Assembly (NCBI GenBank): GCA_964016885.1
Contig: OZ024756.1
Span: 35,712,001 to 35,776,000 of the forward strand
Source of the DNA: Eledone cirrhosa
Lineage: Eukaryota
Length of the DNA stretch: 64,000 nt
Direction: 5' to 3'
Shown one piece after another: positions 1-58,147 of this stretch. The position numbers and the translations under genes were made by a program. The notes beneath the pieces were generated by a model. That model did no database searches and was not told the DNA's origin. It saw only the letters and a list, made by a program, of their open reading frames with translations. Numbering within the stretch: position 1 is the first letter of the stretch; each line of letters opens with the position of its first letter.

Positions 1-2326
1 AAGAAACATCAGTCAGATATTGGAACCTCTCCGTCAATGCCGAACATTAGAAACCTAGGAAAAGACAGATCGAGTTCACTCCGAAGAAAGAGTTCCCAAG
101 TGAGTACACACTCACATGAAAAACGATTCACAGGTTCATCGAAAAGCCTAGCAACTTTTTCGATCAGACGTCATGTGGATGGGACTCTACACATGGAAAA
201 TGTCAGTAACAAGATTTCAGAACAATGTAAAGGTGAAAAGTCATTTTATTCGGTCCCAAATGTGAAAAAACTTGCCAGTGAGACTCAACAAGTTGGTGGG
301 AAAGTAACGACTTCACTGGTTGACATTAGAAACAGTAAATTCTCGCTGTTGACTGATTTTCCCCAGTTTGATTCCATTCTGAATACAGATAAAACTGATC
401 AAACACACAGTAGTAAATGTGTGACCTTTTCTAAGCTTTCGACTGAGCAGGACATCAAAAGTTCATGGGCATCACTTTCATCGGGGACAAAAGTACTCCC
501 TAGAACAACATCTGTGGAACTCAAGTCTGGTGTGCTGCCCAACTCACAAACCTATGTTCAGTGTTCAAAAGATAAAAAATCCGTGCCAGAGAAGTGTGAA
601 AAACTTTCCAATTCACTTCTTGACCAGATTGCCGATTACTGGAAACCGCCGTCTATATTGAAACAGTTGTTCAACGCACCTATATTTATAGAAAGTTCCA
701 CAGATCCTATACCATTACAGGAAAACTGCAAGATTCCAAACTTACCCGAGATTGTTGAAAGTTTAAAGAAACCTCAACGTAAAAAATCTAAGAAACTAGG
801 TAACTCTTATGCCATTGTAGACCAAGCATTGAAGGACATGAAGTACAGGAATTTGTTGAACACTTACACTGATGAAGACCTTGCAGTGTTGCCTTCTCTT
901 TCGAATCCGTCAGTACAAGGAGAAAGAACCTTACTTTCGTCTGTTGATGATGTTAATGTCAGTAACATGGAAAACATTAGTGAAGAAACAAACCTAACAA
1001 AGATATATGGCACGCCAGTTGACATTTTAGCATCCCAGCAAGAAAAACAATTCACGTTTCAACAACCGTTTGGAAAGCCATCACAGTTAATAGTCGTTGA
1101 ATGTCCCCAAAATTACTCTGTTTCTAATGTTGATTCTGGTCAGTTTGTAGACCCAGCTAAATTCACCCAAGAAATATCAAAATCTGCAGATTTTCACATC
1201 AAATTTGATAGAGCTGAGAAGAGACCCTCAGCGTTTCGATCGTTTCCGACATCTTCATTAAACAACAATTATAATGAACATATAGACAACAGCCTAACTC
1301 CAGACCAGCAACGGCGAATATCTTTGCAGCACTACAACATTCGAGATGTGTCTGGGACAAACGTTGATACTGACAGCAAAATATTACAGCAGCAGCAATT
1401 ATTGCAACAACATCTCCAAAAATATCTGGAACCCTCTAGTTCTGGCAGTATTGTTGAAGTAGCAAGTGATGAAGATCTCAAAGCTAATGATAGATCCCCT
1501 AACTTCCCTTATATTGATGTTGAAGCTACTGTAAGACAGTCTTATGAGAATCAGAATCAACCCCACCAACAACCAAGGTTTTCGACAAGGTCTACCTATT
1601 ATGAAAGTTATGAAGAAGTGAAATACCTCACATCAAGAAAATTATCTTGTTTACCCCCCCTTTCGGAAGTTGAAAGCGATGAAATATCTACATTGTCTGA
1701 AATAAGTAATTCTTCTACTACCCAAACTACATCTGCCATCGATATGGTAAAACCCACTTTGAAAATCTTTACCTCTGCTGAACCATTACCTACAATAAAA
1801 ACGCCCAGAGAAGCTGTAACGAAAAATATGTCAAGAAAGAAATTAAATCAATCAACAAAAAGTATGACAGCTTTTCTAGCCGAAACAGCACCAAATAAAT
1901 GCCCTCCAGCCTACTATATGCGCAGCACAGGCAACCTGCAAAATAAGGCCACCTTTGCAGATGTTGTACTTGCTAGTACGAAAATGCTTCGTCACCAAAA
2001 ACCAGGATTATCAACGAGCTGTCTCGATATGGGAATGGTTGTTAGTAATCGAATATTTGATCAACAAAGAGAATTTGGCGCCCCTAAAACGGCCATTTCT
2101 TTGTCAGATATGAAATACATTGGAAGTAGAACAAGTCAGTCAAGCCCAAGTAATATGTCAAATTCGATGGCTGATGTAGGCTCGATGAGCAACAAATTAT
2201 CAAAAAGCGCAGGCAGAAGATATTCATATTCGATGTCAGATGTAAAGAATCTAAAGAATTCAATGTCAGGAAGCAACAAGGGATCCACCAAGTCACTCAG
2301 TAGGATTGGCTCTGCCATTATGAAAG
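1..2326 (+). CDS. Nav2: Giant coding exon (>=2326 nt, open from base 1), Ser/Thr/Gln/Lys-rich low-complexity segment, probable DII-DIII cytoplasmic linker of the channel
   Basis: Frame 1 is open from position 1 (KKHQSDIGTSPS, then MPNIR...) to a strong donor AAAG|GTAAGT at 2326/2327 (phase 1). This matches the phase-1 acceptor at 45376. No recognisable domain, so linkage to the channel is inferred from phase and position. Confidence 0.7.
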
Positions 2327-52764: not shown

Positions 52765-52950
52765 AGTAGAATATTTCCATAAGTCCACATCTGTCATCTA
52801 GCTCTTAGAATATTTCCATGATTCCACATCTAGTCATCTAGCTCTTAGAATATTTCCATGGTTCCACATCTAGTCATCTAGCTCTTAGAATATTTCCATG
52901 GTTCCACATCTAGTCATCTAGCTCTTAGAATATTTCCATGGTTCTACATA
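52765..52950. repeat. 40-bp minisatellite beginning at the 5' splice site of the S2-S3 exon
   Basis: AGAATATTTCCAT at 52768, 52807, 52847, 52887 and 52927. Confidence 0.9.
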
Positions 52951-57593: not shown

Positions 57594-57682
57594 CATTGGT
57601 GGTGTTGATATTTAGAGCTATGAACAATATGTTAATAAAACCTTGAATGCTAGATCCTAACGCTATCTTTTCTCTATTCCAG

Positions 57683-57946
57683 ATCATAGTTAATGCTTTG
57701 ATGCTATCTATTCCTTCCATCTTCAACGTCTTGTTGGTGTGCGTTGTATTCTGGTTGATATTTGCTATCATGGGAGTGCAGTTATTTGCGGGCAAGTTCT
57801 ACAAGTGTGTCAACGAGACAAATATGAGGATCTCCTCAACGGAGGTGGCCAGCAAACAAGAATGTCTTTATAAAAACTATACGTGGGTTAATTCGAAAGT
57901 AAATTTTGACAACGTAGGAGGAGCCTTCCTTGCTTTATTTCAAGTG
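57683..57946 (+). CDS. Nav2: DIII S4-S5 linker, S5, extracellular turret and P1 helix exon ([42 protein letters not shown]...[15 protein letters not shown])
   Basis: TTCCAG| acceptor and GTG|GTGAGT donor; 88 codons with a highly conserved Nav DIII signature. Confidence 0.96.
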
Positions 57947-58147
57947 GTGAGTAAGTTAATTTGTTCAGTCCATTCTGGAGCCTTCTTTGTTTTATTTCAA
58001 GTGGTAAATAAGTTAATTTGTTCAGTCCATTCTGGAGCCTTCCTTGCTTTATTTCAAGTAAGTAAGTCAAATTGCTCAGTCCATCCTGGAGCCTTCCTTG
58101 CTTTATTTCAAGTGGTAAGTAAGTTAAATTGCTCAGTCCATTCTAGA
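57920..58147 (+). repeat. 4-copy tandem repeat (57, 57, 54 bp spacing) of the exon 3' end plus 5' splice site
   Basis: Units begin GGAGCCTTC at 57920, 57977, 58034 and 58088, each encoding GAF(L/F)(A/V)LFQ(V) followed by GT. Confidence 0.95.

Follow-up and report, generated by a model that had tools for sequence, protein, structure and literature searches.

Tandem arrays whose first unit spans an exon/intron boundary, so that the splice donor is repeated, are described for intron 7 of human F7 (a 37-bp VNTR), intron 13 of CBS, intron 2 of the interferon-inducible gene 6-16, LMNB2 and intron 4 of PDGF (PMC1557585). According to the same source, F7-type arrays hold a few to tens of units and vary in copy number, as does the array studied here. 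In F7, the most upstream donor alone is used, even against downstream copies whose consensus value had been raised to 91, and perfect downstream sites capture 70-90% of splicing. CBS and 6-16 make use of the nearest pseudo-sites. The preference for the first donor, i.e., a scanning rule, has been demonstrated in mammalian cells only (PMC1557585). In the marine invertebrate amphioxus, tandem copies of exon/intron boundaries known as mirages are described for Adh3 and the globin genes BflGb6 and BflGb9. The copies are 81-100% identical and unstable in number, and regular splicing is apparently undisturbed (PMC3087553).

A second group of relevant systems consists of four-domain channels with alternatively spliced pore loops. 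Examples are NALCN exon 15a/b and invertebrate Cav3 exon 12a/b (PMC6259924), as well as exons 8a/8b of Calanus Nav1.1, which also affect domain III (DIII) (PMC5660226). As these sources describe them, the switches are whole duplicated exons that were seen in RNA, and those of NALCN and Cav3 are long conserved. Turret splicing alters selectivity in snail Cav3, and the length of L5III turrets ranges from 40 to 60 aa between channel families (PMC6259924). DIII P-loop splice variants are reported for copepod Nav1 (PMC5660226). We also found two tandem DIII pore loops, with the spacing of the NFD motif kept, in the copepod para gene models P0002, P0121 and P0122; these are probably mutually exclusive exons merged by annotation, as in Calanus 8a/8b.

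The array described here belongs to the first group, the minisatellites at exon-intron junctions (F7 IVS7 type or mirage). Its units are arranged head to tail, and their period of 57 nt lies within the range of ~10-160 nt.

A minisatellite at the end of a Nav2 pore exon

In 264 kb around the window (the whole stretch of Eledone cirrhosa DNA that was analyzed, 64,000 nt of contig OZ024756.1), 24 coding exons have matches of 75-100%, in unchanged order, in the Abdopus aculeatus record named 'voltage-gated sodium channel invertebrate type 2'. The four pore loops (TQDYW, CGEW, TFEGW and TSAGW) form a D-E-E-A ring, with no lysine in DII or DIII; a DEEA ring is the definition of Nav2 (PMC6259924). 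These properties support assignment of the host gene to Nav2 (DSC1/BSC1 class), a four-domain channel. The Abdopus match and the DEEA ring also bear out a preliminary description of the sequence, in which the host was recognized as a channel exon encoding the DIII P1 helix. Hapalochlaena is reported to have one Nav1 and one Nav2 (PMC7656900). A protein search among records of 295-2000 aa gave no cephalopod protein among the best 120 listed. Further upstream in the gene, a single exon of ~2.5 kb (window 1-2326 plus ~180 nt upstream of the window) accounts for ~835 aa of the DII-DIII linker and shares 89% identity with Abdopus Nav2. A 43-kb intron then separates it from a small exon (45375-45437).

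The features of the region are as follows, with slashes marking the exon/intron border of each donor.

57683..57946, plus strand: Nav2 exon for DIII S5, L5 turret and P1 helix; 88 codons, phase 0 at both ends; ends GAFLALFQV; 94.5% identity to Abdopus P0224
57920..57976, plus strand: unit 1, 57 nt; final 27 nt of the exon, native donor GTG/GTGAGT (57946) and 30 nt of intron; out-of-frame donor at 57950
57977..58033, plus strand: unit 2, 57 nt; exon copy bears L>F and A>V; weak phase-0 donor GTG/GTAAAT (58003)
58034..58087, plus strand: unit 3, 54 nt (3-nt deletion); phase-0 donor CAA/GTAAGT (58057) and out-of-frame donor at 58061
58088..58144, plus strand: unit 4, 57 nt; exon copy equal to the native end; phase-0 donor GTG/GTAAGT (58114) and out-of-frame donor at 58118
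58145..58155, plus strand: degenerate start of a fifth unit (4.2 copies according to TRF)
58187..58189, plus strand: TAA, first in-frame stop of the read-through, in the frame read from the exon start at 57683
61101..61154, plus strand: DIII selectivity-filter/P2 exon, 18 codons, ATFEGW...; filter Glu codon GAA at 61110-61112

The repeat was detected by TRF as a 57-nt minisatellite with 4.2 copies, 87% matches and a score of 360, far above chance. Its first unit straddles the authentic exon/intron boundary, which agrees with octopod Nav2 proteins, and the splice donor is thereby repeated. The units differ from each other by 2-7 substitutions, and the array stretch matches its own genome at one place. 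The preliminary description had proposed four triplet, stop-free units at 57/57/54-nt spacing, and this is confirmed: the units measure 57, 57, 54 and 57 nt, and the frame that starts at 57683 passes through all four without a stop until the TAA at 58187.

Splice donors and their likely use

The donors at 57946, 58003, 58057 and 58114 are all in phase 0, like the acceptor at 61101 that opens ATFEGW, and use of donor 2, 3 or 4 would add 19, 37 or 56 aa, as had been proposed. The earlier count of three extra donors is correct for in-frame sites, but it overlooked three out-of-frame donors located at +4, with the sequence TGA/GTAAGT at 57950 and TAA/GTAAGT at 58061 and 58118. Each of these three would lead to a stop inside the filter exon. 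The idea that downstream donors place a variant helix before ATFEGW also needs modification. Whereas the copy in unit 2 carries L>F and A>V, the exonic part of unit 4 is identical to the native one, so that splicing at the downstream donor with the best score would leave the P1 helix unchanged, preceded by a 56-aa insert.

To compare donor strengths, a matrix was built from the 22 other donors of the gene, in which GTAAGT is the usual donor sequence (16/23). The native donor scored 8.7 bits, donor 2 5.4 bits, donor 3 10.9 bits and donor 4 11.5 bits; the +4 out-of-frame donors, with 9.7-10.5 bits, also exceeded the native site. Duplex energies with the animal's own U1 gave a different ranking, with equal values for the native donor (-10.8) and donor 4 (-10.7) and -7.2 for donor 3. 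Neither measure predicts usage. No pairing partner of the filter exon stood out within the array (-21 to -24 kcal/mol; mean -15.6, sd 9.2), and a 9-bp hairpin over the spliced junction, found for donors 1, 2 and 4, was not significant (z -0.9 to -1.8).

Donor use was examined in contigs from 6 of 23 read runs (X1, X4, X5, X6, X10 and X16). Run X4, which is probably RNA from organism A and amounts to 88 million letters of contigs, contains one 203-nt contig, with a depth of 3.7, that aligns up to 57947 and has 4 further letters. Neither 57948-58345 nor the filter exon is covered by X4, to which no weight is given, as contigs document presence alone; no RNA run is listed for 57683-58200, which has no bearing on expression. 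A contig of X10 (organism C, which lacks the array; assumed to be RNA) also ends at 57947, with 10 letters left, whereas the DNA runs continue. Because the G at 57947 is common to the intron and the next exon, both contig ends are compatible with splicing at 57946, which is a weak hint in favor of native donor use. No joint between a donor and 61101 was present among the 15 listed of 1339 joints, which are dominated by intronic repeats.

The reading that we consider most probable, at about 0.75, is that the locus carries a junction-spanning minisatellite with pseudo-donors that would be mostly silent and a first donor that would be preferred. The array probably arose through slippage or unequal crossing-over in the common ancestor of this species and organism B, a close relative discussed below. 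The spliceosome, by analogy with F7, would mostly ignore the repeated pseudo-donors and favor the first one. The open frame would then be a left-over of the 57-nt founding unit, and not a product of selection. Arguments against this explanation are that perfect downstream copies in F7 and the nearest pseudo-sites in CBS and 6-16 do get spliced, and that donors 3 and 4 outscore the native donor on the matrix derived from the gene.

The same scores favor an unregulated leak, in which >5% of the transcripts would use donor 3 or 4 and encode a 37- or 56-aa insert that is likely misfolded, tolerated and non-adaptive. We regard such a leak as unlikely, but as a serious alternative. With the frame open, leak transcripts would escape nonsense-mediated decay, and the use of proximal pseudo-sites in human CBS and 6-16 (PMC1557585) provides a precedent. 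The predicted insert, with up to three Cys and a mean hydropathy of up to 1.5 over 19 residues, also fits a leak. On the other hand, the only probable RNA contig of organism A ends at the native donor, which argues weakly against it, and both F7 and the amphioxus mirages splice normally in the published accounts (PMC1557585, PMC3087553).

The mostly silent junction minisatellite that we prefer matters little in itself, being one more such array in a repeat-rich octopod genome. It does offer a natural test, in a mollusc, of the first-donor preference described for F7, as its downstream donors have the higher scores and their products would not be masked by nonsense-mediated decay. The frame-broken array of organism B would serve as the control for such a test.

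Reading frame, relatives and the pore

A triplet, stop-free founding unit passes its open frame on to tandem copies for free. The probability that a founding unit is both triplet and stop-free is ~0.22, and the probability of remaining stop-free after 10 random substitutions is ~0.57 (8 distinct substitutions were seen). The open frame of the array is only modestly beyond chance. The sole indel among the units is 3 nt long and lies between two adjacent GT dinucleotides, where slippage yields 3 nt. That the single indel is of this size would lower the chance probability further. Substitutions between units comprise 6 nonsynonymous and 2 synonymous changes, compared to 121:40 expected at random. 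The changes look neutral, and a purifying signal is absent.

Arrays of this kind are frequent in the host gene (181 kb), which contains 22-30 complex minisatellites, with a triplet period in 9 of 22. A complex minisatellite starts between -30 and +200 nt of the donor for 5-6 of 23 donors (4-5 of 22 without the focal one), compared to 0.6-0.9 of 23 under random placement; this interval was chosen after the data were seen, and the random model ignores the share of introns taken up by microsatellites and transposons. With many arrays near donors, some are expected to be in frame. DIII contains another array at the end of an exon, a 40-nt minisatellite (4.6 copies, 96%; window 52767-52949), which begins 6 nt past the donor of the DIII S2-S3 exon (52761) and has a non-triplet period.

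The array is also present in organism B (run X5, a close relative, depth ~20), the contigs of which cover it. The exon segment 57790-57946 shows one listed difference from the window, and the array itself differs by -4 at 57947, +1 at 57984, -1 at 57990, a 55-nt skip (58046>58102), +3 (GTG) at 58057 and +1 at 58116. The skip corresponds to one 54-nt unit plus a 1-nt loss already listed, and the record lengths fit the gaps. Chaining of the four array contigs by 31-mers (records 4, 7, 5, 7, 6) gave a reconstruction with six units of 53, 58, 56, 56, 57 and 58 nt; record 7 has a depth of 43 compared to ~20, and two haplotypes of unequal length are also possible. Five of the six reconstructed units are non-triplet, and donors 3-6 are out of phase. 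The codons past the native donor read V-S-stop, with TAA as the third codon, so that donor 2 is closed as well. This stop lies in one contig and is independent of the chaining.

In organisms C and D, which are more distant, the DNA contigs (runs X6 and X16) agree with the window up to 57953, beyond which they enter unrelated intron, so the array is absent. Presence in A and B and absence in C and D indicate that the array is lineage-restricted and arose in the A/B lineage. Copy number has turned over, with four units here, six (reconstructed) in organism B and none in C and D. In both X6 and X16, a second contig matches 36 nt across the donor (window 57925-57960) with 5 differences and unmatched flanks; this match is unexplained and may be due to chance or to another locus.

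These comparisons bear directly on the headline proposal of the preliminary description, namely that the array is a repeat-born pore switch, for which preservation of the frame among related species was suggested as a test. In organism B the frame is lost, through 5/6 non-triplet units and the in-frame TAA, a result that the description had itself listed as refuting the switch, and the headline proposal is accordingly not supported. The second option of that description, a neutral slippage array, is supported by the neutral-looking unit changes and by this broken frame. A comparison that points toward the switch is the number of frame-breaking indels, 0 here against 4 in organism B, which is suggestive, although with a probability of ~0.13 (0.6^4, hand arithmetic) it is not significant.

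To evaluate what the extended isoforms would look like, we compared the spacing of pore elements among homologues. Use of donors 2-4 would insert 19-56 hydrophobic residues between the NFD motif and the P1 helix and filter, while the filter residue would be unchanged in every isoform. The distance from an NFD-type motif to the filter that follows it is 15 residues in 197 of 221 homologues (23 lack the filter pattern and 1 lacks the motif). From GVQLF (S5) to the filter, each of the 193 homologues measured has a length of 58-62 aa; the homologue set consists of top hits and is thereby biased against insertions. In the octopod Nav2 cluster (n=7), this length is exactly 58 in five members, the sixth keeps this spacing and carries a variant filter, and the seventh is fragmentary. 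A search with the 56-aa insert against proteins of 99-2000 aa gave 77 candidates, none with E<=10; full octopod Nav2 proteins (~2300-2370 aa) fall outside this range. A conducting extended channel is possible but unlikely.

An adaptive switch would require that the in-frame donors 2-4 were co-opted after the split from organism B, lengthening the DIII turret by 19-56 aa and thereby tuning selectivity, gating or toxin block. It would draw support from the three spacings, which are all triplet and stop-free, from the effect of turret splicing on selectivity in snail Cav3 together with the 40- to 60-aa L5III turrets (PMC6259924), and from the DIII P-loop variants of copepod Nav1 (PMC5660226). Nevertheless, we find it very improbable. 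The frame is broken in the one relative that bears the array, the 6:2 ratio shows no purifying signal, and out-of-frame donors of similar score lie 4 nt from three of the four donors. Moreover, every isoform would have the same filter residue and the fixed NFD-to-filter spacing would be lost, whereas the known switches are duplicated whole exons that preserve this spacing. If extended isoforms are made and do conduct, they would represent a new route to pore diversity, caught early.

An assembly artefact, which the preliminary description had itself named as a possible objection, is hardly credible: short tandem arrays are prone to mis-assembly and no single contig covers all four units, but the units are distinct by 2-7 substitutions, X1 (possibly the source sample of the assembly) contains 46/46 sampled words and has contigs equal to 57640-57981 and 58013-58413 with 0 differences, and the array is present in organism B, which comes from a separate study.

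A different type of pore variation was encountered in Abdopus aculeatus Nav2 P0224 (QPI69432.1), which has the filter sequence ATFGGW with Gly at residue 1839 (DEGA), where the window and five other cluster members have ATFEGW. A-to-G changes by themselves would account for 19 of the 26 private substitutions in P0224, and G-to-A for 1. For comparison, A-to-G-type changes make up 3 of 22 in each of two contig-linked cluster members (P0225 and P0226 are near twins with no private changes, and P0223 was excluded from the comparison set). A fraction of 19/26 is what A-to-I editing would be expected to leave in a sequence derived from a transcript, and recoding by such editing is described as abundant in coleoids (PMC8382921). 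The Glu>Gly change in the Abdopus DIII filter is thus likely to reflect A-to-I recoding, although it is found in one record and may instead be a genomic change or an error. The filter codon GAA (61110-61112) of the present species could be edited likewise. When spliced from 57946 to 61101, the transcript can form a 9-bp stem whose 4-nt loop lies at the junction and in which the A of the filter codon is paired (0.98); this stem is not significant (z -0.9) but could bear on editing of the codon. Sodium-channel rows are absent from one supplementary file each of PMC8382921 and PMC9068888, and editing tables elsewhere may bear on the recoding. A literature search, with most subscription papers outside its scope, found nothing on Nav2 filter editing or on the array. 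If the recoding is real, the octopod Nav2 DIII filter would be switched by editing and not by the array, and A-to-I recoding of the filter Glu is a more plausible pore switch at the Nav2 locus than the array is.

Comparison with known arrays and pore switches

The host gene shares with Nav2/DSC1/BSC1 channels the D-E-E-A ring and a long II-III linker, and its native splice form shows no relevant difference from them. Compared to the pore-loop switches of NALCN, Cav3 and Calanus, the array is of another kind. Its units repeat the donor side only, which displaces the NFD motif by 19-56 aa, so that the exon is only lengthened and the filter stays the same. Furthermore, the open frame is not conserved, in view of the non-triplet units and in-frame TAA of the nearest relative, and the array is known from sequence, whereas the switches were seen in RNA (PMC6259924, PMC5660226).

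The resemblance to junction arrays is much closer. As in F7, the first unit spans the exon/intron boundary, but the copied coding part is 27 nt here and 4 nt in F7 (PMC1557585). Unlike in F7, the units of the present array have diverged, some of them outscore the native donor, and the read-through is in frame and stop-free in this species. The similarity to amphioxus extends to the position of the repeat, as BflGb9 also copies the 3' boundary of an exon (PMC3087553). The array differs from the mirages in phylum and gene and in its location in an ion-channel pore exon, and its copies retain both their GT donors and the reading frame.
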